From positions 1 through 64,000 of the forward strand of contig JAEOTA010000022.1 of NCBI GenBank assembly GCA_016840085.1: 64,000 nucleotides of DNA. Reading direction: 5' to 3'. Below the pieces are notes generated by a model, which was given only the letters and a program-made list of their open reading frames with translations, was not told where the DNA came from and did not search any database. Made by a program: the position numbers and the translations under genes. The DNA is from Promethearchaeota archaeon. Lineage in GTDB: Archaea; Asgardarchaeota; Lokiarchaeia; Sigyniarchaeales; SOKP01. Below are positions 16,817 through 43,309 of this stretch, piece by piece. Numbering within the stretch: position 1 is the stretch's first letter; every line of letters starts with the position of its first letter.

Positions 16817-18082
16817 TTAAATTTTCTCAACTTTAATTGCTTTCCAAGATTCTTTTTGTTTTTTCTTGTCGTAAGAAGGTATTGCTTCACATTTTACTTC
16901 ATCATTATCTTTAACATTTGAGGGTAAAATAGATTTGTCGCATATTATTGATTCTTTTTTAGTATTGATGAAACAGAAAGGTCGATTTTGACGACCCAAA
17001 TTTAAAACACCCATAAATGTCTTTTTTTTTGATTCCTTCATTTTTTGAATTTTAGTATTTATATTTCCTTCTGCTTCCCAAAATTCTTGACAGTGTGAAA
17101 ATATTTGGTTAATTGAACTTAAATTAGAAATATCCGGAAAAGAACCAGATAACTTTTTTATAGAAGACTCTATATCTTCTGGAACAGTCCAACCTTCCTT
17201 TTCTCGAATTAGTTTACTTAATATAAAATGATATAATGCTTCTTTATCTTTTCCTAATTCAACACATAAATTTCCAATTCTATGATAAATATTTACCATT
17301 ATTTTCATAGACTTATTTAAAATCGCAGCTTGATAGAACATTTTCAACGCATTATCTTTAACATTCATCTTCAATAACAAATCTGCATAATCTTTGTAAA
17401 TCCACCAATCTTTTTTATATCTCATTAACTCTTCATATATTTTTGCTGAAACCTCATATCTCTCTGACTCTTTAAAAGATTTAGCTTTTAAATTAAGAAA
17501 GAATTCCTTAATTTGGGGAAACTCATTAATGCATTCATCAATATTAGAAATAACTTCCTCATATTGCCCAATTTTTAGTAATGCCTTATAATAATTATAT
17601 TTCCATCGAGATTTATCACTCCATTTTGTACCTTTTATAAAATCTTTACTTAAATCCTCAATATTCACTTTTTTTAGCCATTTAATTGCATTTTGTAACT
17701 TTTCGTGATTATCTGCTAGTTTTAATAATTTGAAAGCAATTTTTTTTAGTATAATAGGATTAAATGTTATTTTATCGATTTTTTTAGCAACAATTAATGC
17801 TTCAGTAAAACTATTAACTTGTTTAAATGGACCACTTACGAGAGTCCAAGCAACCTCATTTTTTACCCAATCTATTGTGGGAAATAAATCTATTAGACTC
17901 TTAGCAAAAGAAACAGCATATTCAAAATTTTCTAATTTTCTTAAACAATGAAGCAAACCAGCACCTGTATATGCATCTTTTAAAATATCCCAACTTTGTT
18001 TATAATATTCCAATGCCTCTTCATATTTGTTTTCTTTCCTTAAAATATTTGCTTTAATAGCTAAATCTTTTGGTTTCATCAT
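16817..18082 (-). CDS. TPR protein with C-terminal cold-shock/OB-fold domain
   Basis: TPR helices throughout; C-terminal PFCFINT...DEVKCEAIPSYDKKKQKESWKAIKV. ATG at 18082 preferred over TTG at 18151. Confidence 0.75.
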   Translation of the reverse strand: MMKPKDLAIKANILRKENKYEEALEYYKQSWDILKDAYTGAGLLHCLRKLENFEYAVSFAKSLIDLFPTIDWVKNEVAWTLVSGPFKQVNSFTEALIVAKKIDKITFNPIILKKIAFKLLKLADNHEKLQNAIKWLKKVNIEDLSKDFIKGTKWSDKSRWKYNYYKALLKIGQYEEVISNIDECINEFPQIKEFFLNLKAKSFKESERYEVSAKIYEELMRYKKDWWIYKDYADLLLKMNVKDNALKMFYQAAILNKSMKIMVNIYHRIGNLCVELGKDKEALYHFILSKLIREKEGWTVPEDIESSIKKLSGSFPDISNLSSINQIFSHCQEFWEAEGNINTKIQKMKESKKKTFMGVLNLGRQNRPFCFINTKKESIICDKSILPSNVKDNDEVKCEAIPSYDKKKQKESWKAIKVEKI

Positions 18083-18602
18083 TAATAATCCATTGCCTTT
18101 TGGAAATCTATATATAATTATTAAAGTAAATTGAAAATATATATTTTTCAATAAATGTGATTATACTAGCATAGAATATCAAAAAATTATTAATAGATTA
18201 AAAACAACAGATAGATTTCATAGGGGTTATGTACAATTTTATTCGAACAGTAATCTGTTTGTTCAAAAAATTAATAAAAAATATAAATTCAATCTCCCGC
18301 TTTTGTTGAGACAATCTAGCAAGGTTTTTCAGCTCTACGAGAAAAATTTCATGCAAAAATACAAAATTTTATTTACTAAATGATTAAATTCTAAATGAAT
18401 TAATCATAAAAAATTTAAGTAAACAGAAGAATTAAGATATTAACCAAAGCAAAAAATCTAAATTCCTAATATGTAACTTTTAATCATTATTAAAATATCC
18501 TTTACTTTTATGGGATTATAACTCAAAATATAAGAAAAATGATACAAATTATAGAATATGAGCTTAATGAATTTCCTCTAATAATTGAAAAAGGTTAGAA
18601 AT

Positions 18603-24601: not shown

Positions 24602-25657
24602 ATGTTAAGGATTATTAAAATGAAAAATTGGATTATTATTCATCATTTTTCAAGTTATCTTGAGCATAATGATTTAATTGGTATTCCTGCTAGGTTAGAT
24701 AAAGAAGCTAATGAATTAGTTCCAAAATATTCTGCAGCTGAAGAAATTCAAAATGGAGATCAATTTGCTTATTATTGTCCAGCCCCCAAAAAAGTTGTGA
24801 TCGGATTATTTGAGATAATTGATGGACCAGGAATATTTGCTGATGATTGGAATGATAGCATTCATTTTAGGATAAAACCAATTCTACCAGTAGACTTAGA
24901 TACTAACAGTGTACCTTACCATGATTTAGTAAATAACTTGAACTACTTTAAAGATAATGAAGGAAAAGTGTTAATTGGTCCTTCAGCCTCATTCAAATTA
25001 AAAGGAACGATAAAATCTATTGATAATGAAGACTTCAATAAGATCTTAAAGCTATATAAGAAAACTGAAATTATCCCTCAACCAGAAGATTCACTACATA
25101 TCAATATGATTAAAACAAGTCATCTCCAAGCTAACCAATTTCAATGTTATAGCTTTGTAGGCTCTCAAGAACGCAATCGAGTATATAATAATATCTCTGA
25201 TAATGAAGAGATATATGTTTCAGGTGCTACTATGGAAGATCTACCCTCGTGGTTATCTGACATAGGAAATCAATTAGGAACACAACAGCGCATACGTTAT
25301 ATTGATAATCTCTGGTTTTTTGAAGAATCACCCGGATTTTATGTACCATTTGCAGCAATTGAACATGAAAAAGATGCAAACTTAAGGGGTGTAATGGACC
25401 GTTTTACCGGGTTGAATAATACTTTAAATAGCAATAAGCACCTTAAAGAAATTAATCCATTATATTTTTTAGTCGCTAAAGATTCTACTCAAGCTTATTC
25501 CTATGAAAGGAAAATTAATGAACATGGAGAATGGAGACTTTTTAAAAGAGATCATAAGTTTTTCATCTTTTCAAAGCCTGAAATTGAAAATAGAACTCCA
25601 AAATACGTTCAAATCCTCACAGAGCACTTGAAATCGATACCGTATTATGAAGGATGA
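24602..25657 (+). CDS. EVE/PUA-like domain + PD-(D/E)XK-like nuclease (candidate modification-dependent restriction enzyme)
   Basis: WIIIH...EIQNGDQFAYY...VIGLFEI N-terminus; YIDNLWF...AAIEHE C-terminus; start may be 24620. Confidence 0.6.
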   Translation: MLRIIKMKNWIIIHHFSSYLEHNDLIGIPARLDKEANELVPKYSAAEEIQNGDQFAYYCPAPKKVVIGLFEIIDGPGIFADDWNDSIHFRIKPILPVDLDTNSVPYHDLVNNLNYFKDNEGKVLIGPSASFKLKGTIKSIDNEDFNKILKLYKKTEIIPQPEDSLHINMIKTSHLQANQFQCYSFVGSQERNRVYNNISDNEEIYVSGATMEDLPSWLSDIGNQLGTQQRIRYIDNLWFFEESPGFYVPFAAIEHEKDANLRGVMDRFTGLNNTLNSNKHLKEINPLYFLVAKDSTQAYSYERKINEHGEWRLFKRDHKFFIFSKPEIENRTPKYVQILTEHLKSIPYYEG

Positions 25658-25684
25658 AAATTAAAATTTTTTATTTGTATATAG

Positions 25685-27307
25685 ATGATTGATAAAGAGA
25701 TTTTATTAACTGAAGCAGATCCTAAATTTAAGGAATTCATGATTTCTGTTTTAGAGGAATTCGATCGTATTAGAACAAATCTACCAGGAATAGAAATAGG
25801 AAATAATCCTATTTCTCCTCATAATGAATATGTCATCCCTCCAAATTTATTTAGTGATTTTGGACAATTTGATATAGAAGAGTTTAACCCAAACGTAATA
25901 AATCAATTGAATGAATTATTACTAATAGATGAATTTCCTCTTCATATTTACTTTGATTTAGATTTTTCATATTATGGAATAAAAATTGTAAATTTTTATG
26001 ATAAGCTATTTGAAGAAACTTTTCTCATCTATTTATTCTGGAATTCTACCCTGCCTTTAAAAATATTATCAATGATAAATGAATTGCGAATGAGTTTTAA
26101 GTTAAAAAAAATGCCAATTAATATTCTAATTCCTTTAAAAGGATTTTATTTGCCAAGTAGAAAGGAAGATAATAATCATATGAGCAAAATCTATAATATT
26201 CAATTAAAAAAAATAGATGAAGCTACTCAAGTAGCGCTTAAGAATATCTCAAATTATTCTATAATAAATTTTCATTATAATGATAATGAAAACAAGATCC
26301 AATTTGTTTTTGAAGGAATTAATAAACAATTCTCAGAATTTTGTATTAATGCTAAAGGAAACACTGACTTTAAGCTACAGGAGTATGATCCAAGATATTC
26401 CTATTCATACCTATGGAGATATATCGAAGAAGTTGCTCAATCGTTAACTTTGGAAGGTACTTTACTAAGATTTGGTCAACCTTTTTATAATTTCCCTTGG
26501 TGGATTTCTAGTGAAACAAAAATAAGATTCGATTTCCATTACCCCGAGTGGATGAGTAATAAATTTATGAATAAAAATAATTATTCTGGATTAGTACCCG
26601 ATACAGAATCCTTTTCTACAACATTTTTCCGTCAAATGAGAAAATATTATGAAAAAGGAAAGCAATTATGGGAAAAAGATTTTATTATTAATTATGGGGC
26701 TCCACTGAACTCAGAGATGGAGTTTTTAAATGAGCTTCATTCAGATTCAAAATTTATATCTAATCCCGATAGAATCGTGTATCTTTTTAGAAATTTAAAT
26801 GATAACAAATCCACTATTAATTTTAAAAAAGATTTCTTCATTCTTGATAGATTTTTGAAATTAAGCCAAAGAGAAAAAATAGAAGACATTATTTTAGATG
26901 TTTGTATAATTTTAGAAACATTGTTATTATACAATATCCAGGATGAACTTTCTTATCGATTAAAGTTAAATGTTTCAAGTTTACTAGCTGAAAATGTCGA
27001 AGAATTCGACTTTTATTTTAATTTTTTCTCAGAATTGTATAAATATCGTAGTGCGATAATACATGGAAATCCAAAATTAACAAGAGGTTATAAAAATTTT
27101 GTTGAAAATACATATCCAAATCTATTAGAGAAGCTGGATATAAATAACGAAATCTCTAAGAATTTTATAAATAAAACAATACAGTATGATATATTCAAAA
27201 AGATATGCATGGTGTTTAATAAGTTAATAGATTCAAATATAGATTACCGTAATGATTTTAAAACAGATGGTTTTCTAAAAATATTTCTTAAAAAAGAACC
27301 AATTTAA
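25685..27307 (+). CDS. ApeA-like HEPN domain protein
   Basis: LETLL...ELSYRLKLNVS...LYKYRSAIIHG. Confidence 0.75.
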   Translation: MIDKEILLTEADPKFKEFMISVLEEFDRIRTNLPGIEIGNNPISPHNEYVIPPNLFSDFGQFDIEEFNPNVINQLNELLLIDEFPLHIYFDLDFSYYGIKIVNFYDKLFEETFLIYLFWNSTLPLKILSMINELRMSFKLKKMPINILIPLKGFYLPSRKEDNNHMSKIYNIQLKKIDEATQVALKNISNYSIINFHYNDNENKIQFVFEGINKQFSEFCINAKGNTDFKLQEYDPRYSYSYLWRYIEEVAQSLTLEGTLLRFGQPFYNFPWWISSETKIRFDFHYPEWMSNKFMNKNNYSGLVPDTESFSTTFFRQMRKYYEKGKQLWEKDFIINYGAPLNSEMEFLNELHSDSKFISNPDRIVYLFRNLNDNKSTINFKKDFFILDRFLKLSQREKIEDIILDVCIILETLLLYNIQDELSYRLKLNVSSLLAENVEEFDFYFNFFSELYKYRSAIIHGNPKLTRGYKNFVENTYPNLLEKLDINNEISKNFINKTIQYDIFKKICMVFNKLIDSNIDYRNDFKTDGFLKIFLKKEPI

Positions 27308-27452: not shown

Positions 27453-28961
27453 ATGGCTCAAAAAGAATTAGACAAATGGACAGGTCGAAAAATGCCGAAA
27501 TTAACCCTTGATAAGTTAGAGTCTTTTTTATGGAATGCTGCGGATATACTACGCGGCAGTATTGATTCCTCAGAATATAAACATTATATTTTTGGATTGT
27601 TGTTTCTAAAGCGACTTTCGGATGAGTTTGATGAGGAACACGAACAAGTTGAAGGTGATCCTGAAGATCCCGATAACTATCAGTTTTTTGTGCCAGAACG
27701 AGCTCGATGGAAGAGTATTCGTAGAGTATCAGAGGGAATTGGAAATGCTATAGATAAAGCTTTTGAAGCGCTAGAAGAAAATAATCCTCTCTTAGAAGGT
27801 GTCTTAACACCAATTCAATTTCAAGACCCTAAGCGTTTACCAGATGCAGTATTGAATAAGCTTATTACGCATTTTAGCCAACCCGAGTTTAACCTTGCCA
27901 ACTCGAATTTAAGCGAACCAGATATGCTAGGAAGAGCTTATGAATATTTGATTAAACAGTTTGCCGATGATTCTGGTAAAAAAGGAGGTGAATTCTATAC
28001 TCCCCAGGGTGTTGTAAAACTTTTAGTCCGACTTTTAGATCCTCAAGAAGGAATGAGAATTTGCGACCCTGCATGCGGTAGTGGTGGAATGCTTATTGAA
28101 AGTTTTAATTATTTGAAAGAACAAGGAAAAAATCCTAATAATATTTCAATTTTTGGACAAGAAAAGAATTTAAACACTTGGGCTATTGCGAAAATGAATT
28201 TTTTGCTACATAATATTCTTGATCACAGAATTGAACATGGGGATACTATGGCAGATCCCAAATTAAAAGAAGATAATCTTTTAATGTTATTTGATATCGT
28301 CATCGCGAATCCTATGTGGAATCAAAAAGAATGGAATCGTGAATCATTTGAGCGAGGAGATCGTTATGGAAGAGCAAAGTATGGAATCCCTCCAAAAAGC
28401 TCTGGTGATTGGATGTGGGTACAACACATGTTAGCCACATTGAATAACAGGGGAAGATTGGGAATAGTATTGGACAATGGCGCATTATTTCGAGGTCAGA
28501 GTGAAGGAAAAGTAAGAAAGGCAATTGTGGAAGCAGATGTTATTGAAGGAATTGTTGCGTTACCCTCTAATCTTTTCTATAATACTGGGGCTCCAGGTTG
28601 TTTAATAATAATAAATAAGCAAAAATCAGAAGAATTGAAAAATAAAATATTTTTTATCCATGCTGAAACTGAGTTTGAAGAAGGAAAAGCACAGAATTTT
28701 CTGAAAGATAAACACATCCGAAAGATATCGAAAACTTATAGAAAAAAAGAGGAAATAGAGAAATTTTCAGCATTAATCGATCTTGAGGAAATACAAGAAA
28801 ATGATTATAATTTGAACGTTTCCCGTTATATTGATACTTTACCTGAAGAAGAACCCATTGACGTTACTGAATATAATACAGAACTACAGAAACTGCAAAC
28901 TGAACGATTAGAATTAGAAAAAGATTTTGAGAGAAATATAAGAGATTTAGGGTATAAATAA
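27453..28961 (+). CDS. hsdM: Type I RM methyltransferase subunit
   Basis: LWNAADILRG, GEFYTP, DPACGSGG, ANPMW. Confidence 0.95.
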   Translation: MAQKELDKWTGRKMPKLTLDKLESFLWNAADILRGSIDSSEYKHYIFGLLFLKRLSDEFDEEHEQVEGDPEDPDNYQFFVPERARWKSIRRVSEGIGNAIDKAFEALEENNPLLEGVLTPIQFQDPKRLPDAVLNKLITHFSQPEFNLANSNLSEPDMLGRAYEYLIKQFADDSGKKGGEFYTPQGVVKLLVRLLDPQEGMRICDPACGSGGMLIESFNYLKEQGKNPNNISIFGQEKNLNTWAIAKMNFLLHNILDHRIEHGDTMADPKLKEDNLLMLFDIVIANPMWNQKEWNRESFERGDRYGRAKYGIPPKSSGDWMWVQHMLATLNNRGRLGIVLDNGALFRGQSEGKVRKAIVEADVIEGIVALPSNLFYNTGAPGCLIIINKQKSEELKNKIFFIHAETEFEEGKAQNFLKDKHIRKISKTYRKKEEIEKFSALIDLEEIQENDYNLNVSRYIDTLPEEEPIDVTEYNTELQKLQTERLELEKDFERNIRDLGYK

Positions 28962-28974
28962 AAATTCAATAGCT

Positions 28975-30171
28975 ATGAAAAAAACTAAGATTGGTTTGAT
29001 ACCCGAAGATTGGGAATTTTCAAATATTGGAAATTACTGTGATGTAATCACCGGGGGTACTCCGAGCACAAAAATTGAGGAGTATTTTAATCCTCCCGAA
29101 ATTCCTTGGATGAGATCTGGTGAAATAAAAGGATATAAAATAAAATCAATTTCTACTTTTATATCAAAAAAAGGATTAGAAAATTCAGCAGCGAGAATTC
29201 TTCCAAGAAAATCTGTTGTTATAGCACTAGCAGGTCAAGGAAAAACTCGTGGAACTACCTCGCCACTGGAAATCAAAAGCTCTTGTAATCAGTCAGTTGC
29301 TTGTATGGTACCAAATGGAAAACTAAATTACATATTTTTACACTATCATCTTAGTCGTTTATATAAATATATTAGAAATATTACTGGAGATGTTGGTCGA
29401 GAAGGCTTAAATCTAAAGTTGATTAGAAAATTCCCTTTAATTTTACCCCCTTTAAATGAACAACAAAAAATTGCTACAATACTATCTAATGTAGATGATC
29501 TTATTCTTCAAACAGATAAAATAATCGAAAATTTACAAATATTAAAAAGAGGGCTGATGCAACGCCTCTTTACGGAAGGCCTCGGGCATACCGAATTTAA
29601 ACAGACGAGATTGGGGAAAATTCCAAAAGAATGGGAAATTAAGAAACTTGAAAATATATTGATTCTTGAGTACGGAAAAGGATTACCCAAAAGGAAGAGA
29701 CAGAATGGTCCTATCCCAGTTGTAGGTTCAAATGGCATAATTGATTATCATAATGAACATTTAGTTAATGGACCAGGGATTGTAATAGGAAGAAAAGGCT
29801 CTATGGGAAAAGTTTCTTGGATAAATGAGAATTTCTGGCCAATTGATACAACTTATTTTATTAAAATTATCGATAATAGCATAGATAAGAAATGGCTTTA
29901 TTACGCTTTAACAAATTTAAATTTAGAAAGATTAAGTTTAAGTGACGTAGTTCCAGGTTTAAATCGTGAATACGCGTATTCAAGGAATATTTTAATACCC
30001 AAATTATATGAACAAGAGCAAATTGTAAAAATTTTAGAAAATATAGATAAAATTATTGAAAATGAGCAAAATTATTTAAATAACTTAAAAAATACAAAAA
30101 AAGGTTTAATGCAAGAGCTCTTAACAGGTAAAAAAAGAGTAAAAATTAATCAAGATGAAGTGTTATTATGA
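28975..30171 (+). CDS. hsdS: Type I RM specificity subunit
   Basis: Two TRD-conserved repeats (IPEDW/IPKEW; PPLNEQQKIA; KRGLMQ/KKGLMQELLTG). Confidence 0.95.
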   Translation: MKKTKIGLIPEDWEFSNIGNYCDVITGGTPSTKIEEYFNPPEIPWMRSGEIKGYKIKSISTFISKKGLENSAARILPRKSVVIALAGQGKTRGTTSPLEIKSSCNQSVACMVPNGKLNYIFLHYHLSRLYKYIRNITGDVGREGLNLKLIRKFPLILPPLNEQQKIATILSNVDDLILQTDKIIENLQILKRGLMQRLFTEGLGHTEFKQTRLGKIPKEWEIKKLENILILEYGKGLPKRKRQNGPIPVVGSNGIIDYHNEHLVNGPGIVIGRKGSMGKVSWINENFWPIDTTYFIKIIDNSIDKKWLYYALTNLNLERLSLSDVVPGLNREYAYSRNILIPKLYEQEQIVKILENIDKIIENEQNYLNNLKNTKKGLMQELLTGKKRVKINQDEVLL

Positions 30172-33100
30172 ATCTTTTTGATTGGAGTGAATATAACCAA
30201 ACAGAAAAACCAGCATTGGATTTATTACAAGAGCTAGGCTATCAACATAAAGAAGGAAAAGAAGTAAGTCCTCAATATACTACTATTGAACGTACCAGTC
30301 TTAGGGAAGTGATTCTTTCAGCAACATTAACAAAAAAGATTAAAGAATTTAACCCTTGGATTAATGAATCAAATATTAAGCAAGTTTTTCGTAAATTAAC
30401 AATAATAACCACTTCCAGTCAAATTGATTTTAATGAACAAATCTGGGAATATCTAACAAAACCTAGTAAGCTTGTAGTGGAGCAAGATCTTCATGATGGA
30501 AAAGGTCGGCGGAATCAATGGGTTATACTCATCGATTGGGATAATCCCAAGAAAAATGAATTTTTAGCAGTCAATCAATTTAAAGTTAATGCTTCCAGAG
30601 GGAATAGAATACCAGATATTGTAATTTTTATTAATGGTTTGCCATTAGTTGTAATTGAATGTAAAAGTCCTCTTTTAACAAACCCTTTGCAGCAAGGTAT
30701 ACGCCAGATTATAGAATATCAAGAAACAATACCTAAATTATTTTACCTTAACCAAATTATTATAGTTACAAGTAGTCAATCAGCTGTTTTTGGTGTTATT
30801 GGAAATTCATACGAGAACTTCCAAATTTGGAAGGATCCATATCCTATTACTAAAGACCAGCTTGGAAAAATTGTTGAACAAACAGGTCGTTCAACTCCAG
30901 ATCCTACACCTCAAGATATTCTACTTCATGGATTGCTTGAAAAAAGAAATCTTTTGGATTTAATTCGGAATTTTATAATTTTTGAAACTTTAAGAGGAAA
31001 GCTTATTAAAAAAATCGCTCGATATCAACAATTTAGAGCAACTAATATAACTCTAGCTCGTATCTTAACAGAAAAGGATCCTCAGCAGCGAGGTGGAACA
31101 ATTTGGCATACACAAGGTTCAGGAAAATCTCTCACTATGTTATTTACTGCGATAAAATTGAGGAGAGAGACAAAACTAAATAACCCTTTACTTGTTTTTA
31201 TATGTGATAGGATTAACTTAGTAAGTCAATTAAATAATACATTCGAAAGATGTGGATTTCCTAATCCGATTGAAGCTAAAAATGTTGATAATTTGCAGGA
31301 ACTTATCAAAATTGGACAAGGTGTCACAATATTTACAACAATTCAGAAATTTCGCACAAAAGATGCAGATTCACAAACAGGAATATCAAAAAGTGGATTA
31401 GAATTTTCTATATTTAATACAGAACAGAATATTTTTGTACTAGTTGATGAAGCACATCGTTCACAATATAAGATTTTCGGTATGAATATGCGTATCGGAA
31501 TGCCTAATGCATGTTATTTAGCATATACAGGAACTCCATTGGCTAAAAACGAATATAATGAGACAATTTCTGTTGGTAGAGGTAAAACAGTAAAAAAATT
31601 TGGAAAGATTATTGATAAATATGATATAAGGCAATCTGTTGAAGATGGTTCTACAGTAAAGATTCTTTATGAAAACCGACTACCTAAATTAACAGTAGAA
31701 GGAGAATCTATTGATGAGATTTTTAACCGTGTATTTGCTGATAAAACTCCTGAAGAGCGGGAAAGAATCAAACAGAAATATGCCACTGAAGATGCAATTC
31801 TAGCTGCTCCAGAAAGGATTAAAAAAGTTGTATTGGATATTCTGAAGCATTATGAAGATCATATTGAACCAAATGGATTTAAGGCTCAAATCGTAACAGC
31901 TTCAAGAAAATTAGCTGTTATGTACAAGAAATACTTAGATGATTTGAATGCTCCTGAATCTGTAGTAATTATTTCAGCAAATCCTCGCTATGATGATGAG
32001 TTAAGAGCTCTTGGTGTTGATTTTTTCACTGAAAAATCAAAGCAAAAAGAGAGGATTGAAAGATTTAAAGATGACAATGATCCTCTAAGATTTTTAATAG
32101 TGTGTGATATGCTCATTACGGGATTTGATGCTCCAATTGAACAAGTGATGTATCTTGATAAGAGATTGACAGAACACAATTTATTACAAGCTATTGCCAG
32201 GGTCAATAGAATTCATGAGGATAAAAATTATGGTCTTATTGTTGATTATTATGGTGTTTCTAATCATTTAGAAAGAGCCTTAGAAATCTTTGATAAACCT
32301 GACATTGAGGGGTTTATGAAATCCATTGAGAGTGAGTTGTATCCTTTAGAAGGATATCATAAAGCTGTGCTCTCTTACTTTGAAGAAATAGATATAAATG
32401 ATTTAGAAGCGTGTATTTTAGCTTTGGAGTCTGAAAGTGATAGAGCAGATTTTCACAGCGATTTTAAAAAGTTTGCGCAAAGTATGGATGTTGTTTTACC
32501 AGATCCCCGTGCTCAACCATATTTAACTGATTTAAAAAGATTTGGTATGATTTTACAAGCTGCAAAAAACCGTTATCGTGAAGAACAATTGAACCTCGCT
32601 GGATGTGGTAAGAAAGTCCAAAAGATTATAGATGAACACATAAGATCGACTGGTATTAAAATTTTAGTTGAACCTGTTCCCATTCTTTCAGAAAAATTCC
32701 AGGATGCATTAGATAGTCTAAAATCGGAAAAATCAGTCGCAAGTGAAATGCAACACGCTATTCAACATGAAATAAGTGTTAAAATAGATGAAGATCCCGT
32801 TTTTTATAGGAGTTTAAAAGAACGGTTAGAAGAAATAATACAGATGTACAATGAAAACAGAATCAATCTGGCCGAAAAAATTAAGAGATTAAGAGCACTA
32901 TATAATGAAATTAAAGAAAGACCAAATTTAGCTGAAAAAATGGGACTCAACAGCGCTGAGCTAGCAATTTTCAATTTATTAAAGGAGGATTCTATTAAAT
33001 CGGGGATTGAAGATGAGCGGGAAATTGTGAAATTCACCTATGAGATATTAGAAGCAATTGAACCATATGTAACTCTGATCGATTGGCAAAATAAATCTGA

Positions 33101-33227
33101 TATTTTAAGACAAATACGAAAGGCAAGCAAACTGGTCTTTCATCAGAAAGATATTGATAAAAAAAGACAAAATCCTTTAGCACATCAAATTGAAGAACTC
33201 GCTAAAGTACATTTTCCATCAAGATAA
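30168..33227 (+). CDS. hsdR: Type I RM restriction subunit
   Basis: PDIVIFINGLPLVVIECK, HTQGSGKS, DEAH, YTGTP, QAIARVNR. Confidence 0.95.
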   Translation: MNLFDWSEYNQTEKPALDLLQELGYQHKEGKEVSPQYTTIERTSLREVILSATLTKKIKEFNPWINESNIKQVFRKLTIITTSSQIDFNEQIWEYLTKPSKLVVEQDLHDGKGRRNQWVILIDWDNPKKNEFLAVNQFKVNASRGNRIPDIVIFINGLPLVVIECKSPLLTNPLQQGIRQIIEYQETIPKLFYLNQIIIVTSSQSAVFGVIGNSYENFQIWKDPYPITKDQLGKIVEQTGRSTPDPTPQDILLHGLLEKRNLLDLIRNFIIFETLRGKLIKKIARYQQFRATNITLARILTEKDPQQRGGTIWHTQGSGKSLTMLFTAIKLRRETKLNNPLLVFICDRINLVSQLNNTFERCGFPNPIEAKNVDNLQELIKIGQGVTIFTTIQKFRTKDADSQTGISKSGLEFSIFNTEQNIFVLVDEAHRSQYKIFGMNMRIGMPNACYLAYTGTPLAKNEYNETISVGRGKTVKKFGKIIDKYDIRQSVEDGSTVKILYENRLPKLTVEGESIDEIFNRVFADKTPEERERIKQKYATEDAILAAPERIKKVVLDILKHYEDHIEPNGFKAQIVTASRKLAVMYKKYLDDLNAPESVVIISANPRYDDELRALGVDFFTEKSKQKERIERFKDDNDPLRFLIVCDMLITGFDAPIEQVMYLDKRLTEHNLLQAIARVNRIHEDKNYGLIVDYYGVSNHLERALEIFDKPDIEGFMKSIESELYPLEGYHKAVLSYFEEIDINDLEACILALESESDRADFHSDFKKFAQSMDVVLPDPRAQPYLTDLKRFGMILQAAKNRYREEQLNLAGCGKKVQKIIDEHIRSTGIKILVEPVPILSEKFQDALDSLKSEKSVASEMQHAIQHEISVKIDEDPVFYRSLKERLEEIIQMYNENRINLAEKIKRLRALYNEIKERPNLAEKMGLNSAELAIFNLLKEDSIKSGIEDEREIVKFTYEILEAIEPYVTLIDWQNKSDILRQIRKASKLVFHQKDIDKKRQNPLAHQIEELAKVHFPSR

Positions 33228-33266
33228 AAAATAAGACCAAATAAATATACAAAAAAATAAGTTAAA

Positions 33267-34010
33267 ATGGTTTCTGAAATACAAACGATAAAGTATGGAG
33301 ATATAGAAATTAGTTATTCCATAGACCGAACGTCTCGTAAGACTATAGGTATAGTTGTAGAACCCGATGGGAAAGTAATAATCAAAGCACCTTTAGATTT
33401 AGAACAACAAATAATCCAGGAATCAATTTACAAAAAAAGAAAATGGATTGCTGAAAAAATAAAATTAACAGAGGAAATCGAAAAACCAATTCCGCTTAAA
33501 CATGAACTTGTTAGCGGAGAAAAAATATTATTAAAAAATAGATTAATTAGATTAAAAATACACCCTTATCCAAATAAAAGGTCAAAAATTACATACGCTT
33601 TTAAAATTCTTCATATTTATATTAATGAAACACTTTCTCAAAAGGAACGAGAAGAAGAAATAAAGAGAGTGCTGATTAATTGGTATAAAGAAAAAGCTCT
33701 TAATATTATCACTAATAGAATTGATAAATACTTGGCATTAATTGATTTCAGGCCTCACGGAATTAAAATTAGAAACCAAAAAGTAAGATGGGGCAGTTGT
33801 ACTAAAGATGGAAAATTAATTTTTAATTGGAGAATTGTAATGGCTCCTATATCAGCTATTGATTATATTATTGTTCATGAATTATCACATTTAAAGGAAC
33901 CTACTCATTCTACTAAATTCTGGAGTATAGTTCAATCGCTGTTTCCCAATTTCAAAAAATGTAAAGAATGGCTTAGAATAAATGGATTAAATTTAGAATT
34001 AAGAATTTAA
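33267..34010 (+). CDS. M48/YgjP (DUF45) zinc metallopeptidase commonly following type I RM
   Basis: RWGSC, DYIIVHELSHL, HSTKFW. Confidence 0.9.
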   Translation: MVSEIQTIKYGDIEISYSIDRTSRKTIGIVVEPDGKVIIKAPLDLEQQIIQESIYKKRKWIAEKIKLTEEIEKPIPLKHELVSGEKILLKNRLIRLKIHPYPNKRSKITYAFKILHIYINETLSQKEREEEIKRVLINWYKEKALNIITNRIDKYLALIDFRPHGIKIRNQKVRWGSCTKDGKLIFNWRIVMAPISAIDYIIVHELSHLKEPTHSTKFWSIVQSLFPNFKKCKEWLRINGLNLELRI

Positions 34011-34030: not shown

Positions 34031-36763
34031 CTACTCATTATTTAATGGATTTTCAATAAGATTTTGTAGAACTTCATTTTTTTCTAAAATTTCGGGACAT
34101 TGTTCAAAATGATATGAAATCCATCGAACTTTTCCATCTTGAATTTTATTATAGAAATAACAGGCATTTTTATTTTTTCTGGGTTCTAACGAAATTGTAA
34201 AAAATGGCAATAATTTAAGTGGTGTAAGTTGATTTTTTTCGATCATATATATAGTACCTTTATCCATTGGGATTGATGTTATTATTTCTTTTTTTTTAAA
34301 AATCATTGAAGGTCCTTTTAAGTCATGAACAGTATAACTGTATTTACCAAATTCGTAATCATTCTTACCTGGTAGTATAAATAATAAAGAATCAAATTTG
34401 TTAGCCATAACTTCTCTAAAGTTAGTTAATTCTTTTTCTAAAAGAGTTAAACGGTTCGATATTATGTCTGGATTCATAATTCCACTGTGACCTTTCCAAT
34501 CGTTCCGATATCTATTAGTAATTTTTAAAATCTTCATTAATTTATCATTAATAATAGATTCTAGAATTTCTATAGTATTAATATGGTATAAAGAAAGGCA
34601 GAGATTCCTATTTTCAGAACTAAATAGTAAATCATTTGTGATTTTAATAAGAGTAGAATTATAGGTGACCAACTTACCAAATGTACTAAATTTTAAATTT
34701 TTAAATCCCTTCTCATTTGTAAAAATTGTCTTTTTGAAGCGGTCAAATAGTTCTGTTTTCCAATACATAGCACTAATCATTATAGTAAATAAAAATTCTG
34801 CTAAAGCTTCAAAAAAATTGAGTAAATGATCCACTTTTAATTTTGGTTTAATATCCGCATGATATCGTATTAATATTGAAGCCAATGGGTATGGGAGTTT
34901 GTTAATCCATTCTTCAAAACCTTCCTTGCGATTAAACGAACTTAACTTTTGTCTGATGTTATTTATTTCCTTAAGGTTTGACCATAATTTAGAATCGTAT
35001 TCTTTAAGTTGCAGAATAATCTCTCGTATATTTTGATGTAAATCGATAATTATATTTTGAGTATTTATATCTGGAAGATATATTTTTGATGTTATTAAAC
35101 TTTTCTTTGAAATACTTGGAATTACAGATCCAAAAGATATATGTTCTCTCAATTTTAAGCCAAGAGGGGAATTATAAAAACCTGAAGCAAAATCTGCCAA
35201 TAATTTATCTGGATTAAAAACTAACTGAATATAATTATGTGGTTTTAAGCTAATTTCATCTAAATTTACTATTGACTCAGATCTGCCAATTTTTGGTAGG
35301 TATATTGAGTTAGATTTTGACTCAAATCCGTTTAATAAATCTTTAGAACTTAAATTAATTTCACTTATCAAATCTTTCAGATAGTACGAATCTAATCTCA
35401 TTTTAGATGCAATAGAATCAAGATCATTAATATAAATTTTAGGGTATAAATTATAATCATTTTTTTTAATTGTTTCTATATTAATTATAGCAGAAAATTG
35501 CTCAATATTTTCTAATTTTTCATAAGCGCTTAGAATTTTATTTAGATGAAATTCCTGAAGTATATTTTTTCCCTGAAAATGTTCAAATTCATCTTTAGCT
35601 TGAATGAAATAAATATTATTTTTCAATATTTCTGGTTTGTTCTTATTAATTATAATTACACAGCAAGATATATTCGTATTCCAGAATAGATTGGAAGGCA
35701 ACTCTATAATAGTTTCAATTAAATCATCCTTTATGAATGCTTTTCTAATCTTCCTTTCTGATCTACCTCGAAATAATGCCCCATTATCTGTAAGAATTCC
35801 AAATCTTCCATATTCTGAAGTTATTTCTAACATATGCTGCAGCCACATCCAATCACCAGAAGTTTTTGGTGGTATTCCATATTTAGATCTATTATATGGA
35901 TCTCCATTTGTATAATGCTTTCGAGGCCAATCCCATTGATTCATTGGAGGACTAGATATTACAATATCAAATTTCATTAATTCATTATTTTGAAGAAATG
36001 GATTGATTAATGAATTGCCTAATTCTATTTTTGCACTAAAAAATCCACTTAAAAAAAAATATAATTTTGTAATATACCACAAATCATAACTTAATTCTTT
36101 ACCAAAAATCGACAAGTTATCTAAATTATTACCCTTTTCCTTAAGATTATTAACTGATTCTAATAAAAAACTCCCATTACGAGAACAAGGATCACATATC
36201 TTCATACCTTCTTCTGGCTTTAATAGTTTAATTATTAATTTAACAATTTGAGGTGGTGGTAAAAATTCATTATTACTTTCACTACTAATATAGCCCCCAT
36301 ATTTAATGATCAATTCAAACCCAATAAGAATTAATCCAGTATCCATTAGATTTGAATTAGATAAATTATATTTAGGATTGCTAAAATGTTGTATTAATTT
36401 ATTTAATAATCTATCTGGTAAATTAGTAGGATCCATAAATTGAATTGGAGTAAATAAACCTTTCAAAATGGGGTTAAAATCTTCTAAAGCATCAAATGCC
36501 TTATCGATTTCAAAACCAATTCCTTCAGAAACATTACGAATATCCCTCCAATGTGCACCATCTGGAATAAATATCTCATAATTATCCGGATCTTCTGGAT
36601 CACCTTTTAAATGGTTGAATATCTCATCAAATTGATCACTTATCCTTTTTAAAAAAAAGAGTGCACTTAGATAGTAAAACTTCTTTTTTTTAAATTTTAA
36701 TACACTTAAAATTTCTCCTGCTTCCCATAAAAACCTCTCTAAAGTAATTAGATCTATTGTCAT
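34031..36763 (-). CDS. Degenerate HsdM paralog + half HsdS-like region + HEPN fusion
   Basis: N-terminal half closely tracks HsdM (GDPEDPDNY, VSEGIG, YGIPPK.SGDWMW) but motif I is DPCSRNG and motif IV is SPPM; GSVIPSISK...LPDINTQ (HsdS-like); FFEALAEF...RNDWKGH. Confidence 0.8.
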   Translation of the reverse strand: MTIDLITLERFLWEAGEILSVLKFKKKKFYYLSALFFLKRISDQFDEIFNHLKGDPEDPDNYEIFIPDGAHWRDIRNVSEGIGFEIDKAFDALEDFNPILKGLFTPIQFMDPTNLPDRLLNKLIQHFSNPKYNLSNSNLMDTGLILIGFELIIKYGGYISSESNNEFLPPPQIVKLIIKLLKPEEGMKICDPCSRNGSFLLESVNNLKEKGNNLDNLSIFGKELSYDLWYITKLYFFLSGFFSAKIELGNSLINPFLQNNELMKFDIVISSPPMNQWDWPRKHYTNGDPYNRSKYGIPPKTSGDWMWLQHMLEITSEYGRFGILTDNGALFRGRSERKIRKAFIKDDLIETIIELPSNLFWNTNISCCVIIINKNKPEILKNNIYFIQAKDEFEHFQGKNILQEFHLNKILSAYEKLENIEQFSAIINIETIKKNDYNLYPKIYINDLDSIASKMRLDSYYLKDLISEINLSSKDLLNGFESKSNSIYLPKIGRSESIVNLDEISLKPHNYIQLVFNPDKLLADFASGFYNSPLGLKLREHISFGSVIPSISKKSLITSKIYLPDINTQNIIIDLHQNIREIILQLKEYDSKLWSNLKEINNIRQKLSSFNRKEGFEEWINKLPYPLASILIRYHADIKPKLKVDHLLNFFEALAEFLFTIMISAMYWKTELFDRFKKTIFTNEKGFKNLKFSTFGKLVTYNSTLIKITNDLLFSSENRNLCLSLYHINTIEILESIINDKLMKILKITNRYRNDWKGHSGIMNPDIISNRLTLLEKELTNFREVMANKFDSLLFILPGKNDYEFGKYSYTVHDLKGPSMIFKKKEIITSIPMDKGTIYMIEKNQLTPLKLLPFFTISLEPRKNKNACYFYNKIQDGKVRWISYHFEQCPEILEKNEVLQNLIENPLNNE

Positions 36764-37546
36764 AATAATAATACCAAATTAATTATATACATTAATGGAT
36801 AATTATCAATATTTATAAAAAGAAATATTATTAAAGATTTTATGAAAAATTACCAAATTCGATAAATTAACTTTCTAATTGAATTTTTATGAATTATGAA
36901 GAAATTAATGATAAATTAATTAGAGATGTTTTGAAAGACTTCAAAATCTCTAATTCATTCAGTTTTTAGAGCTTTATTCAAAATTAAAAAAATAAAACAT
37001 AAATAAATATTTAATTAATAAAAGTAAAATAATACAAGATCTCAACATATAGAATTTAATATCATTCTTTCTTACTTATTAAACGATGAATGAACTAACT
37101 GCGAGAGAAATACATTAGATAGAAGCACTTGCTAAAAAACATGAATTTTTCACATCATTCATGCTCCATTACTAAAGTAAAACATTAATTATCGAATAAT
37201 CAGATTTATAGTCAGGCAGAATAGAATGGTTACACACTCTTATCTGCTGAAGAAGTAAAATTTCTGGAAGAGAATTCTAAAAATAATGAAAATATGCAGG
37301 AATTGTTGGAGATTTATGAAATAATATAATATTTAGGAAGCTTTAATTATAAAGAATTCTTAGATCTAAAATTAGAAGTAATCAAAGAGAAAAAAAAATT
37401 GCTGAATCTATAGAGAATCCTTTCAATTATGCTAAATCCTGATAATGTATTACTTAAAATCAAAATTATTTAAATATTTAAATATTAAAAATTAATAATT
37501 TGATATATAAGAGAAATCATACAAGAACGTAAAACCTATAAAAGAA

Positions 37547-39613
37547 ATGAACGTAGTAAAAGTTTTGGGTAAAGAATATCAAATCACTGATGCCTCCCTT
37601 GACTTAAGTGGAATATCTTTAGAAAGTATCTCTGATATAAAAGGATTAGATAATTTTTCTAATCTTAAACTCCTTTTTCTTGATGAGAATGAGATTTCCG
37701 AGATAGCGGGGTTAGAATCTCTTGAAAGTCTCGAAATATTATCATTAGCAGATAATAGAATATCTGAAATTAAAGGACTTAATACTTTAACCAATTTAAA
37801 ATTCTTAGATCTTCGTTTAAATGATCTTTATGAAATAAAGGGATTAGAATTTTTAATAAATTTAGAAGAATTAATTCTTGACGATACTGGCATTTCAGAA
37901 ATAAAAGGACTTGATAACTTAAAAGATTTAAAGATTTTATCGCTAGACTACAATTCTATAAAAGAAGTTAAAAATTTAGATGGATTGTATGACTTAGAAG
38001 AATTATATTTAAATCTTAATGAAATAAGTAAAATAAAGAATCTGGACAACCTAAAAAATCTAAAAACTTTAGGTCTTGAATCAAATAAGATCTCAGAAAT
38101 CATAGGACTTGAACATTTAAAAAGATTAGAATTTTTAAATCTTTCTGATAATCCATTAGAGGGTATAGATGAGTTTTATGTAAGGAGTGAAGTTAATGCA
38201 CAAACTATAGTTGAATATTGTCTGAGAAAAACTCGTGGTGAGCCAGAAAATATTGAATTTTATGATCTAAATAAAATATATGATCAAAATCTAAATGAGT
38301 TTAAACTCTATTTAGAAAAATTAAATTCTGATGATTTTATTAACATAGGAACTCATCGAGAATTTAAAAAGCATAGAATTATACAAAATAGGATATTTTT
38401 TGAATATCCCGTTGAAAGAGTCTTTTTATCAGATGTAGATACTTCATTTAGTAGGCTAAAGATTCATATTATACAACTGCATTCTTTAAAAGGCATTGAA
38501 TATAATGAAAGTGATAAATTGGAATTTTTTAAATATATAATAAGACATTTCTGGGATAATAAAGAAATTGAAGAAAAGAATGTTTTAGTATATAAAGATT
38601 TTAACTATCGAATCTCAAGCAAAATTGATGAAATTCTAGATTTATCGATAATTAAAAATCAATTTCCTCCGAATCTAGTTATATTTCCAGAAAATTCTAT
38701 ACCTTATTCCAAAGTTGAGGATTTAAAAATAATTTCTAAAAATTACAGAGTTATTATGATTGGTGGACTAGAACATCGCATAGATAATATTGGTGAAAAT
38801 TTTACAAATACAGCTTTTATTATTGATAAGGGAAATATCGGTTATCAAATAAAGCAAACACCTGTAAAGATTATTGATTCGAAAAACAATAACATTTTGC
38901 AAGAAAGAATAATTTGTCAAAAAATTCCTAAGATTAAAATTTTCCAAACCTCTATCGGGAGCGTTGCTGTAATTATTTGTAAAGATTTTTTAAGATTAAG
39001 TGATATTATCTCCAATTGGGCGAAAAAGAATGAGGTTGATATTATTGTAATCCCTTCCCTAACAAGTAAAGTTCTTCCTTTCCACTCTAAACTATTCAAT
39101 ATTTTGAATTACTCAACTCACAAAGATTTAATTATCATATTTAGTAATATAGGGGAATATGGGGGTTCTGAATTATTTTCTATTGATACAAATCCTCAAA
39201 TTGAAGCTAAATTTAGAAAAAATGTTTATGATAATATAGGTGAAACCATTATAGTCAGAGAGATTGATTTAAAAACAATTAAATTAATAATGTCTGACAT
39301 AAAATTTAAATTTTTAAAAGATTGGGATAAACTAGAAAAGATCCTTATTCTCAAAATAATGGCAAATATGAATCAAGAAATAACTCCAACTCCTCAAAAT
39401 CATACTTCTATTATGAAATTCCTTCAAAAAAAAAAATTAATATCAGCACAAAATTTATTTGATTTTTATGAATTAAGGAAAATTAGGAATTCCATAGTTA
39501 GTGATAAAATAATTGCCCGAAGAACATTAGAAAATTTCAATAATAGATTAAGTGATTTAATAAGATCTCTTGAGAAAATAACGATAAAAAAAATAATTGA
39601 ACTAAAAATTTAA
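37547..39613 (+). CDS. Leucine-rich repeat + carbon-nitrogen hydrolase (nitrilase-like) protein with degenerate HEPN-like tail
   Basis: About 8-9 22-aa LRRs (LxxLxLxxNxIxEIxGL); IFPE, IKQTP, IICKDF (E-K-C triad); ELRKIRNSIVS. Confidence 0.8.
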   Translation: MNVVKVLGKEYQITDASLDLSGISLESISDIKGLDNFSNLKLLFLDENEISEIAGLESLESLEILSLADNRISEIKGLNTLTNLKFLDLRLNDLYEIKGLEFLINLEELILDDTGISEIKGLDNLKDLKILSLDYNSIKEVKNLDGLYDLEELYLNLNEISKIKNLDNLKNLKTLGLESNKISEIIGLEHLKRLEFLNLSDNPLEGIDEFYVRSEVNAQTIVEYCLRKTRGEPENIEFYDLNKIYDQNLNEFKLYLEKLNSDDFINIGTHREFKKHRIIQNRIFFEYPVERVFLSDVDTSFSRLKIHIIQLHSLKGIEYNESDKLEFFKYIIRHFWDNKEIEEKNVLVYKDFNYRISSKIDEILDLSIIKNQFPPNLVIFPENSIPYSKVEDLKIISKNYRVIMIGGLEHRIDNIGENFTNTAFIIDKGNIGYQIKQTPVKIIDSKNNNILQERIICQKIPKIKIFQTSIGSVAVIICKDFLRLSDIISNWAKKNEVDIIVIPSLTSKVLPFHSKLFNILNYSTHKDLIIIFSNIGEYGGSELFSIDTNPQIEAKFRKNVYDNIGETIIVREIDLKTIKLIMSDIKFKFLKDWDKLEKILILKIMANMNQEITPTPQNHTSIMKFLQKKKLISAQNLFDFYELRKIRNSIVSDKIIARRTLENFNNRLSDLIRSLEKITIKKIIELKI

Positions 39614-39618: not shown

Positions 39619-40679
39619 TTATAACGACGGAATTAATTTCGCAAAACTGCAGCGAGTTTTAATTTCTATTGATGATAATTTAAAACTTCTTATAAATTTT
39701 ATGAGTGCACGCTGAAATTTCTTGAAAGTGTCAAAAAAAGTGTTATGCGTGACCTGTTTGCGGAAGAACTTCCAAAACCACTCCATTGGATTTAAATCGG
39801 GGGAGTATGGCGGTAGAAAGAGAAGCTCAAATTTTTCCTTGTTAGCTTCTAAAAATGGTTCTAACTCCTTAGAATGGTGCGCACGGGCATTGTCCAATAT
39901 CAGGAGGATTTTCCCCGAGTTCATATACCTGGCAAGGAGCCCCTCTAAAAAATGTTGGAAATGGGATGCCTTTAACGTGTTAGATAATGCCACATGAACT
40001 TTTCCAGCTAGGGGTTCAACTGCACCAATGAGATGTTGTCGTTGCCGACCGCCGTAGGTTAAGATTTCGGGCTGTTGCCCTTTTAACGACCACATGCGAG
40101 TGATGGACGGCGAAAACTGGATACTCGCCTCGTCTTGGAAAAGAACTACGCCATCTTCTCCGAGAGAGTCCAAACTTTTTTAAAATCATTTAGGAATTCT
40201 TTTTGTTTCTCAATATCAGCCTTCGGAAACTTGTATCTCGGACGTTGGAGCGTAAACCCTAGCTTGTGAAGGAGTCTCTGCGCTTGGCGCACGCTTAATT
40301 CCACGCCAAATTTCTGTTTAATGTGATACGACACGCTCTTTCCTTCCCAATTGCTAAACTCATACCCTAATTCACGAGGATGGGTTAACACATCCGCTTT
40401 TAACGTTTCTTTTTCTTCTTCAGAAAGGCTTGAGGGGCGCCCTGGAGGTGTATTTGGAACGATGTTTTCTAATCCACCCTCATTGAACATCTTTACCAAA
40501 GTTTGTATCGTTCTACGAGATTTTTTTATTAGTTCTGCAACTATCGTGCAGTTCATGAACTCATGCATCAAAAAAAGAGCATGATATCGTTCTTTCAGCT
40601 TAGAATTTTTCTCTTTCTTGTAGAGCTCGACCAACTCATCGTGGTTTGGCGAGCTCCTTGTTATTTGAAGTTTTTCCAT
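39619..40679 (-). CDS. IS630 transposase (HTH orfA 40146..40679 + DDE orfB 39619..40173, -1 frameshift at TTTTAAAAAAG ~40175-40185)
   Basis: FQDEA, ILDNARAH, LPPYSPDLNPME; PGRP and HTH in orfA. Confidence 0.9.
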
Positions 40680-41674: not shown

Positions 41675-43309
41675 ATGGAAAAGAAAATGAAAAAAGAGAA
41701 ATTTAAATCGAAAGAAGAAGAACATTTGTGGGAAATCAGACAAGCATACATAGAACTCGTGGACTATTTAAAAATTATCATGTTTCAACAAGGCATTTTA
41801 GAAAGACCTTCATACATGGAACTTTCAACAAAACTGGGCTTTAATTATAATTGGATTAAAGACAAAAAGGATACTCTAAAAGCACATTTTCCATTGAAAA
41901 AAACATTTGACGACTTCTTTATTAGATTAATAGCGAAAAATATAGATTTATTAAATGGTTCTTGGAATGCCATTGAAAACAAATTTCAAAATCTCTATAA
42001 CATCGCTTTTTCTACAGAAGCAAACTTGCCTTCTTCCCCATCTGTATTCAAGAAATCAATTAAAAGGCAATTCTTTGATGACATAAAGGAAATAATTAGA
42101 TATAATTTTCCAAATGCCAGAATTTTTGACACTGATTTATCTAGGATTTTCTTCAGTAGAGCTAGAGCATTAAAAGATACTCATATTAAGGGAAGTACGA
42201 AATTCAGACGCTTTGATGAATCCACGCTTTTTGCTATGATATACAGAATTCGAATAATAACTAATCAAGATTTTGTAAGAAGAATAAGAGATATTAAAAC
42301 CGTAGATCAAATGACACTTAATAGCATCAAACGCGATATTGAAAGATATATTGAGGACTTCATATTTAGCAATCCCTTTAATAGTAAATACGTAAATGAC
42401 AAGCATGATATAGGAACCAAATATTTCAAGCCTGAATATGATTTAACTTTAAACTTGTGGTTTGTTCTATCTAAAACGAAGAAAACACCAATACTTTTAA
42501 AACACGCTCAAAAGATGTTAAAATTTGATACATTTGGGAAATTTAGGAGAGGATGGGAATATTCATGGGATGGTATTATGAATATGTTGAAAGAATTGGT
42601 TAAGTTATTGCCTAGTGAAGAATATTCAAAAGCTTTTGAGAAAGCTTGGAAATATGTTGAAATACGTAATTTATACCCAGCCTTACCTAGAGTGTATCAT
42701 TCAAGTTGGTATACTAAGAATACTATAAAATATCATGTATTAATGCTAATCATCCGTGATTTAGGACTAGATATTTTAAATCTTGACCGGATTAAACCAG
42801 AAGCTTTTAACAAGACTCAATTTATGGATTCTTACACATTTGAGAGACATCATATCTATATAAATGATAAATACTCAATCGATGTAAATAGACTAGTACT
42901 AGTTATGCATATGTATCACAACGACCTTGAAGGTAAAACTGATTTAGTATTAGAATTAGTCAAAAGAAGAATTGATTTAACTTTAGAATGTCCTCAATAC
43001 TATAAAACTAATCTCAAAGAATGGAAAACTAAGTGGCAAGAATATCTTGAAAGACGAAATTATTTAATAGAAAATGGCATAGAGAATTTCATCGTGAATT
43101 ATTTTACTGATGAACAAGGAAACAATTATGTACTTAATAGATTTTTTAATAATGTTCCCAAAGGTCATATTGAACAAGAAATACGAAGCATGATGCAAGA
43201 TTGGATTAACAAAGGAAGACCAGCACCAATTTTAAACACCCACATCTTAAATAGACTCTTTTTGGGAACGTCCCAACTTTTAAATAGTGGTTATTCACCC
43301 AATATTTAA
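41675..43309 (+). CDS. Hypothetical protein with possible HNH-like motif
   Basis: 544-aa ORF; FERHHIYINDKYSIDVNRLVLVMHMYHN. Confidence 0.65.
   Translation: MEKKMKKEKFKSKEEEHLWEIRQAYIELVDYLKIIMFQQGILERPSYMELSTKLGFNYNWIKDKKDTLKAHFPLKKTFDDFFIRLIAKNIDLLNGSWNAIENKFQNLYNIAFSTEANLPSSPSVFKKSIKRQFFDDIKEIIRYNFPNARIFDTDLSRIFFSRARALKDTHIKGSTKFRRFDESTLFAMIYRIRIITNQDFVRRIRDIKTVDQMTLNSIKRDIERYIEDFIFSNPFNSKYVNDKHDIGTKYFKPEYDLTLNLWFVLSKTKKTPILLKHAQKMLKFDTFGKFRRGWEYSWDGIMNMLKELVKLLPSEEYSKAFEKAWKYVEIRNLYPALPRVYHSSWYTKNTIKYHVLMLIIRDLGLDILNLDRIKPEAFNKTQFMDSYTFERHHIYINDKYSIDVNRLVLVMHMYHNDLEGKTDLVLELVKRRIDLTLECPQYYKTNLKEWKTKWQEYLERRNYLIENGIENFIVNYFTDEQGNNYVLNRFFNNVPKGHIEQEIRSMMQDWINKGRPAPILNTHILNRLFLGTSQLLNSGYSPNI

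Follow-up and report, generated by a model that had tools for sequence, protein, structure and literature searches.

The window analyzed here comprises 64,000 nucleotides (positions 1 to 64,000 of contig JAEOTA010000022.1, assembly GCA_016840085.1) from a Promethearchaeota archaeon, an Asgard archaeon of the Loki type. At 37547-39613 (+) it contains a single uninterrupted open reading frame (ORF) for a protein of 688 residues, P0001, in which leucine-rich repeats (LRRs), a helical linker, a divergent nitrilase-type domain and a HEPN-like tail follow one another. The gene lies in a long defense island, and we consider it probable, at about 60%, that P0001 is a cytoplasmic, single-polypeptide antiviral sensor-effector that operates without a nucleoside triphosphatase (NTPase) or a reverse transcriptase (RT). 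It is oriented divergently from the upstream gene and converges with an IS630-like transposase downstream. The 780-bp AT-rich spacer on its upstream side (36764-37546) contains no ORFs apart from two of 26 and 38 amino acids; a scan of the spacer for sigma-70 promoters gave a background-level signal, and the sigma-70 model does not apply to archaea. An earlier note, made from the sequence letters alone, had described regular 22-residue SDS22/internalin-like repeats at this locus, a C-N hydrolase with an intact Glu-Lys-Cys triad (in FPE, IKQTP and ICKDF) and a HEPN-like helical tail lacking the motif histidine (RNSIVS). All three descriptions are borne out by the results that follow.

Selection on the gene was gauged against an ortholog, P0002 (locus L011), which is 76% identical to P0001. 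The ratio of nonsynonymous to synonymous substitution (dN/dS) is 0.18 overall. Among the four regions of the protein, the nitrilase domain has the lowest value (0.11), and the value for the tail is 0.32. The tail is the least conserved domain in identity as well (58%, compared with 79-82% for the other parts).

Nine LRRs make up residues 18-215 (37598-38191 (+)). They follow the SDS22-like pattern LxxLxLxxNxIxxIxxLxxLxx; each is exactly 22 residues long and, from residue 18 onward, they stay in register without insertions or deletions. Pfam returns LRR_4 (E 5.6e-21) and LRR_8 (E 3.8e-12) over residues 17-208, and internalin-type models of NCBIfam match the repeats with E values of about 1e-22. 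These repeats are the putative sensor or binding module. They are followed by a linker (residues 216-300; 38192-38446 (+)) that forms five helices in an AlphaFold2 (AF2) model of residues 215-688 (mean predicted local distance difference test score, pLDDT, 87.1). Scans with Pfam, NCBIfam and PADLOC revealed no NTPase domain in P0001, whether of the STAND, NACHT or NB-ARC type or of another, and the 85-residue linker is purely helical. The linker is conserved across the family and is partly common to relatives in which an ATPase precedes the nitrilase; the alignment to those proteins begins at about residue 241 of P0001. In an alignment of 63 homologous LRR-type cores (A1), F284 of the linker never varies, and G268, T269, E272 and Q280 hardly do. 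The conserved unit of the LRR-nitrilase family spans residues 217-575.

The nitrilase-superfamily (C-N hydrolase) domain, the putative effector, occupies residues 301-575 (38447-39271 (+)). P0001 falls below the threshold of the Pfam CN_hydrolase model (PF00795; E 1.4e-3, 18.5 bits against a cut-off of 23.2) and matches the PADLOC model RTasNitrilase, which represents nitrilases associated with defense-associated reverse transcriptases (DRTs), at E 2.6e-13 and 47.8 bits. When the AF2 model was submitted to Foldseek, mouse Nit2, yeast Nit3, aliphatic amidase and beta-ureidopropionase were retrieved with E values of 2e-10 to 1e-8 and a probability of 1.00. The predicted catalytic residues are Glu382 in the FPE motif (codon 38690-38692 (+)), Lys436 in IKQTP (38852-38854 (+)) and the nucleophile Cys478 in ICKDF (38978-38980 (+)). 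E382 and C478 are kept in all 63 rows of A1, and K436 (one gap) and E453 in 62 each. All four residues are present in 21 of 21 ATPase-type relatives, and in more distal relatives position 382 is Glu and position 436 is Lys in 22 of 22. E453 is likely to be the second glutamate of the catalytic center. We place the domain in a divergent branch of the superfamily, its membership resting on the alpha-beta-beta-alpha sandwich fold of the model and on the aligned active site. The family profile returned only weak matches among all PDB sequences (pantetheinase (vanin), E 0.002; NAD synthetase, E 0.03) and no DRT1 chain; there is therefore no close solved relative by sequence.

About 90 proteins that pair LRRs with this core (38-76% identity) were recovered by a word-indexed search; where a source is named, as it is for a few of them, it is Lokiarchaeota or Promethearchaeota. 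In an exhaustive HMMER search all 1.84 billion representatives were read and only 107 matched; no compact nitrilase of the housekeeping type was present among the stronger matches. The next ones, beyond the LRR family, are proteins of 800-1335 amino acids with a C-terminal nitrilase. Ten close relatives that were scanned have LRR-nitrilase, ABC-type ATPase (AAA_15/AAA_21)-nitrilase, LRR-ATPase-nitrilase or DUF4365-LRR-ATPase-nitrilase architectures. Ten scanned distal relatives begin with HEAT/ARM or TPR repeats or with unidentified regions, and they match the PADLOC models RTasNitrilase, RT_UG5-nitrilase and CARF_nitrilase. In profile comparisons with hhalign, the LRR-type nitrilase aligned to the ATPase type with E 2e-54 and to the distal set with E 2e-36; the distal set aligned to UG5-large RT-nitrilases (obtained via pSymA of S. 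meliloti RMO17) with E 3e-15 and to housekeeping nitrilases with E 6e-9. A maximum-likelihood tree of 90 domains recovered the LRR clade as monophyletic (99% support) and sister to the ATPase clade (98%), and split the housekeeping CN_hydrolases of the lineage from all other rows with 99% support. The UG5 domain falls on the non-housekeeping side of this split, on a very long branch. Because of the profile comparisons, the multidomain relatives and the tree split, we assign the P0001 nitrilase to a radiation of modules in multidomain, conflict-type proteins and not to the housekeeping amidases. The earlier note had named this phylogeny as a check on its proposal, and the domain does not group with those amidases.

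The same data bear on the simplest alternative, that an ordinary metabolic nitrilase or amidase became fused to LRRs by chance. It would account for the fold and the catalytic tetrad, which are those of the nitrilase superfamily. It is nevertheless extremely unlikely: P0001 does not reach the CN_hydrolase threshold, the host genome encodes four bona fide CN_hydrolases, all elsewhere and all on the other side of the tree split, and so vast a search found so few matches, with no compact enzyme among the stronger of them.

Three further observations concern the relatives. One standalone distal nitrilase, P0140, lies among toxin-antitoxin genes without an RT nearby; a second, P0137, is on contigs too short to show its neighbors. 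A feature search of the ESM Atlas was uninformative, yielding only unnamed bacterial clusters (score 0.91). The only other relative of the P0001 nitrilase in the host genome is on contig C2 (30918-31457 (+), locus L010; E 2.6e-7, 28% identity), where it forms the C-terminal end of an open frame with a length of about 1010 amino acids; it is probably a large fusion protein of the sister clades.

The tail (residues 576-688; 39272-39610 (+)) is a helical bundle, and the model of the tail folded alone has a pLDDT of 83.8. Foldseek found no significant match to this model (best E 0.39), although its best rows were HEPN proteins. VIA-align ranked HEPN proteins in all of its top 16 rows (including 1wwp, 2hsb, 2q00, YutE, HepT toxins and Csm6), with Z scores of 6.7-9.6 and root-mean-square deviations of 2.8-4.1 Å over 95-109 of 119 residues; for helical bundles, a Z score below 13 is not decisive alone. 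Sub-threshold matches to the Pfam HEPN clan are weak (HEPN_RiboL-PSP in P0008, E 5.9e-5; HepT-like in the P0001 tail, E 0.012). Taken together with the motif found in relatives, these ranks and matches make the assignment of a four-helix, up-and-down HEPN fold, predicted as it is, a sound one. Among 16 homologous tails (alignment A2), 11 keep the motif R-N-x3-H and two have K-N-x3-H; a subgroup of about 836 amino acids carries the textbook form, LRxFRNxVVHG. The histidine of this catalytic motif (general form Rx4-6H) is absent from the corresponding position of P0001 (R647-N-S-I-V-S652; 39485-39502 (+)) and from its two closest relatives. The P0001 tail thus resembles the HEPN RNases (HepT/MNT toxins, Csm6 and the RiboL-PSP HEPN) in fold and, through its relatives, in motif, but differs in its degenerate active site. 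Because the motif histidine is replaced, RNase activity of this tail is unlikely. Since purifying selection persists (dN/dS 0.32), the tail has most likely been kept for a structural or regulatory role. In the relatives that keep R-N-x3-H, the tail may be a second effector of the RNase type.

The tail also changes from member to member. In 31 of 88 family proteins the chain stops no more than 30 residues past the core; 16 have HEPN-type tails, two have an HNH domain (Pfam HNH, E 2.5e-13) and a single one combines HTH_3 with DUF2240; at least five more classes of tail lack a family match. The length before the core extends up to 413 residues (median 237), so the number of LRRs varies too.

An alternative is a design in which the nitrilase core is mainly an oligomerization scaffold and the variable tail (HEPN, HNH or another) is the real effector; P0001, its HEPN histidine lost, would then be a decaying allele or one repurposed as a decoy or regulator. 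Nitrilases characteristically form dimers, spirals and filaments, and HEPN RNases need dimerization. DRT1 forms filaments (PMC13275509). A two-copy prediction for residues 294-688 scored 0.50 (median of runs at 0.00, 0.51 and 0.50; best control 0.00) and passed its mark, as do 20 of 30 proteins solved as same-chain pairs and, among 23 proteins solved as single chains, one. Agreement between the runs is at least 0% of contacts, the partner pLDDT is at least 76, and the predicted symmetric dimer surface comprises residues 314-320, 333-334, 354-373 and 562-570, without involvement of the tail. Because nitrilase dimers are among the solved structures, this pass signals likeness, not binding. The rapid evolution of the tail, the fastest-evolving domain, points in the same direction as the scaffold idea. 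The 31 tail-less members all keep the catalytic tetrad, however, and the nitrilase is the region with the lowest dN/dS; the P0001 gene is intact and its closest ortholog keeps the same His-less tail. We therefore regard a pure scaffold as quite unlikely and retain the nitrilase as the probable effector of the antiviral protein.

The genes around P0001 agree with the defense-island setting claimed in the earlier note. Upstream are a type I restriction-modification (R-M) operon, hsdM-hsdS-hsdR, with a gene for a YgjP-like metallopeptidase (27453-34010 (+); Pfam) and, between it and the LRR-nitrilase gene, a gene on the opposite strand for a 910-residue type I methyltransferase-like protein (34031-36763 (-); Pfam N6_Mtase and HsdM_N; PADLOC MTase_I, E 2.3e-76, and Specificity_I). 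Among the ten family neighborhoods examined, six contain recognized defense genes, which answers in the same sense the earlier note's question of whether homologs lie outside defense contexts. In L004 (3348-12433, from another Asgard assembly), the hsdM-hsdS-hsdR-YgjP operon recurs, and the HNH-tailed P0047 begins 38 bp beyond it, with SLFN_AlbA_2 and NYN genes next in line; the methyltransferase-like gene separates operon and LRR-nitrilase in the window only. Because the same operon precedes differing family members in the two assemblies, the site after it is a shared variable defense hot spot that holds different alleles of the family. Elsewhere, P0013, with an intact HEPN motif, lies among six TIR/ThsB_TIR and three LD_cluster3 genes (L001); a family gene lies between MmeI-type R-M genes and a four-gene SMC operon (L008); another is two genes downstream of an SLFN_AlbA_2-NB-ARC STAND gene, with one small gene between (L038); and P0002 follows a gene for a 1774-residue DEAD/MZB helicase (L011). 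Upstream and downstream neighbors differ in all ten loci, with no conserved partner gene; the LRR-nitrilase gene therefore acts alone. Its independence of an RT, also put forward in the earlier note, holds: no RT domain was found in P0001 or in the scanned neighbors, and the only RVT_1 match of the genome is on another contig (C74). The distribution is that of an accessory gene. Among 301 genomes sampled from the phylum, at least 3 contain the core; these three belong to a single family, and within the genus 2 of 23 genomes have it; part of the first-look candidates were scored in this survey, so copies may be missed.

Patchy distribution and variable C-terminal tips are also expected of an addiction or conflict toxin carried by a mobile element, similar to polymorphic toxins with a conserved trunk and swappable toxin tips. 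Immediately downstream of the LRR-nitrilase gene, an IS630-like transposase is encoded by two overlapping ORFs (39619-40679 (-); DDE_3, E 1.2e-36; HTH_33, HTH_32 and HTH_29), and the neighborhood of P0037 contains an integrase, a group II intron and PIN toxin-antitoxin genes. On the other hand, the N-terminus of P0001, judged by reading the sequence with no predictor used, is unlike a signal peptide, and a Pfam scan found no secretion-associated domain in the protein. The loci examined contain no conserved, same-orientation downstream gene of the immunity type, and in most of them the family gene is not inside a recognizable element. We consider a mobile-element toxin very unlikely.

We favor the antiviral reading because the active site is invariant, the nitrilase belongs to a clade of conflict-type modules, the tails are modular, the neighborhoods are often defensive, the distribution is accessory, the two-copy prediction passed and DRTs provide a precedent. 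The nine-repeat solenoid would bind a protein derived from, or modified by, an invader. By analogy with DRT1, binding may relieve autoinhibition, drive self-association of the nitrilase, or both. The Glu-Lys-Glu-Cys center would then hydrolyze a C-N bond of an indispensable cellular molecule with an amide or nitrile group, and the infected cell would be arrested; the earlier note had proposed a metabolite or nucleotide as the substrate. DNA adducts drive assembly of the nitrilase in DRT1. Oligomerization is needed there for nitrilase activity, and a C-terminal lid holds the activity off (PMC13275509). Catalytic mutants of the nitrilase abolish defense in both DRT1 and UG5-large/DRT11, and the nitrilase cysteine is required (PMC13275509, PMC13436386). 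A bolder extension, suggested by this analogy and unlikely as it stands, would have Asgard archaea possess NTPase-free LRR immune receptors in which ligand capture builds a nitrilase oligomer or filament, a step that turns on a metabolite-destroying C-N hydrolase and, in relatives, brings HEPN or HNH tails together.

Several points weigh against an antiviral role. LRRs serve as generic modules for protein binding, and Asgard genomes contain very many of them. The predicted concave-face positions of the repeats show no sign of diversifying selection (dN/dS 0.15, from a single close pair with low power). Three of the ten neighborhoods have no recognized defense genes (L003 and L039, with unknown genes only, and the metabolic L006), and L037 offers nothing beyond the PIN toxin-antitoxin genes, integrase and intron near P0037. 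The kinship to defense-associated nitrilases to which the earlier note pointed is supported by the PADLOC match and by the tree. The direct comparison is weak: hhalign aligned the LRR-type profile to UG5-large only with E 0.03, weaker than to housekeeping nitrilases (E 9.5e-6), and the family hidden Markov model matched only 2 of 120 UG5-large proteins at E values up to 10. The RT-nitrilase link thus appears real at the level of PADLOC models and indirect, through the distal clade, for UG5-large; with so weak a direct alignment, direct membership in the UG radiation is not claimed. Finally, which substrate the nitrilase of DRT1 uses is itself not known (PMC13275509).

Some of these points would suit a non-immune, protein- or peptide-directed amidase, in which the LRRs recruit a cellular protein that the nitrilase deamidates or deacylates in Asgard signaling or proteostasis. 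Nitrilase-superfamily N-terminal amidases and N-acyltransferases do act on proteins, and the general binding capacity of LRRs, the lack of a positive-selection signal in them, the three neighborhoods devoid of defense genes and the weak match to pantetheinase could all be read in this way. Such a role is less easily reconciled with relatives that join the same core to HNH or HEPN nuclease domains and to defense-type ABC ATPases, with the very patchy distribution, or with the recurrence of the gene in R-M, TIR and STAND islands. We consider it unlikely and return to the antiviral sensor-effector as the reading that guides the comparisons below.

Like the class 3 UG/Abi RT-nitrilases (DRT1 (UG1), UG5-large/DRT11 and the nitrilases associated with UG5-small and UG6), P0001 has a divergent C-terminal nitrilase with an intact center in a defense context. 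It differs from them in having LRRs instead of an RT, in its archaeal host and in its weak direct match to the UG5-large profile. The undescribed ABC-type ATPase-nitrilase and LRR-ATPase-nitrilase fusions (P0091-P0096, P0106-P0117 and P0126) form the sister nitrilase clade, and some also begin with LRRs, but P0001 has no NTPase between LRR and nitrilase. With NLR/STAND receptors (Avs, bacterial NACHT proteins and eukaryotic NLRs) it shares a repeat sensor and an effector in one polypeptide, the sensor consisting of LRRs as in plant and animal NLRs; it differs in lacking a STAND, NACHT or NB-ARC NTPase and in its order, sensor-effector rather than effector-NTPase-sensor. By its domain content, P0001 lacks the defining feature of either group, the RT of class 3 UG/Abi systems or the STAND NTPase of NLR-like proteins. 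No description of LRR-nitrilase proteins was found in the searchable literature, and P0001 is probably a one-protein immune sensor of a kind not described before.

Few enzymatic effectors of prokaryotic immunity are as poorly understood as the nitrilases. The LRR-nitrilase family would present the same type of effector without RT machinery, joined to a simple sensor for protein binding; among its natural variants, a second effector (HEPN or HNH) is gained or lost. It would thus be a compact system for asking what defense nitrilases hydrolyze and how they are switched on. It would also add Asgard archaea to the organisms with LRR sensor-effector fusions, a point relevant to how LRR-based innate immunity arose in eukaryotes. 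If true, an NTPase-free receptor would mean that the prokaryotes closest to eukaryotes couple recognition by LRRs to cell-autonomous immunity in a new way.

Some other features deserve brief mention. In the IS630-like transposase, which abuts the 3' end of the LRR-nitrilase gene, the HTH domains lie at 40146-40679 and DDE_3 at 39619-40173; the split reflects either a programmed frameshift or a broken copy. Three ORFs in or beside the defense island, of 351, 540 and 544 amino acids (24602-27307 (+) and 41675-43309 (+)), matched neither Pfam nor PADLOC models at the thresholds applied. Further upstream in the same island, an 803-residue ABC ATPase related to OLD, AriA and GajA, probably with a Toprim domain, is encoded at 9436-11847 (+) (PADLOC HEC-01A, E 2.6e-26; AriA, E 1.5e-25; Old, E 5e-22), and the adjoining 811-residue ORF at 12106-14541 has no PADLOC match. 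A 444-residue protein of the tetratricopeptide repeat (TPR)-cold-shock type, likewise part of the island, is encoded at 16817-18151 (-) (PADLOC model "TPR repeats fused to cold-shock-like domain", E 2.3e-23; PDC-M16B models). In L001, at 702-8840 and immediately upstream of P0013, the six TIR/ThsB_TIR genes are interleaved with the three LD_cluster3 (SLOG-like) genes; this cluster is possibly a multi-gene island of the Thoeris-like kind, carried by an Asgard metagenome-assembled genome.

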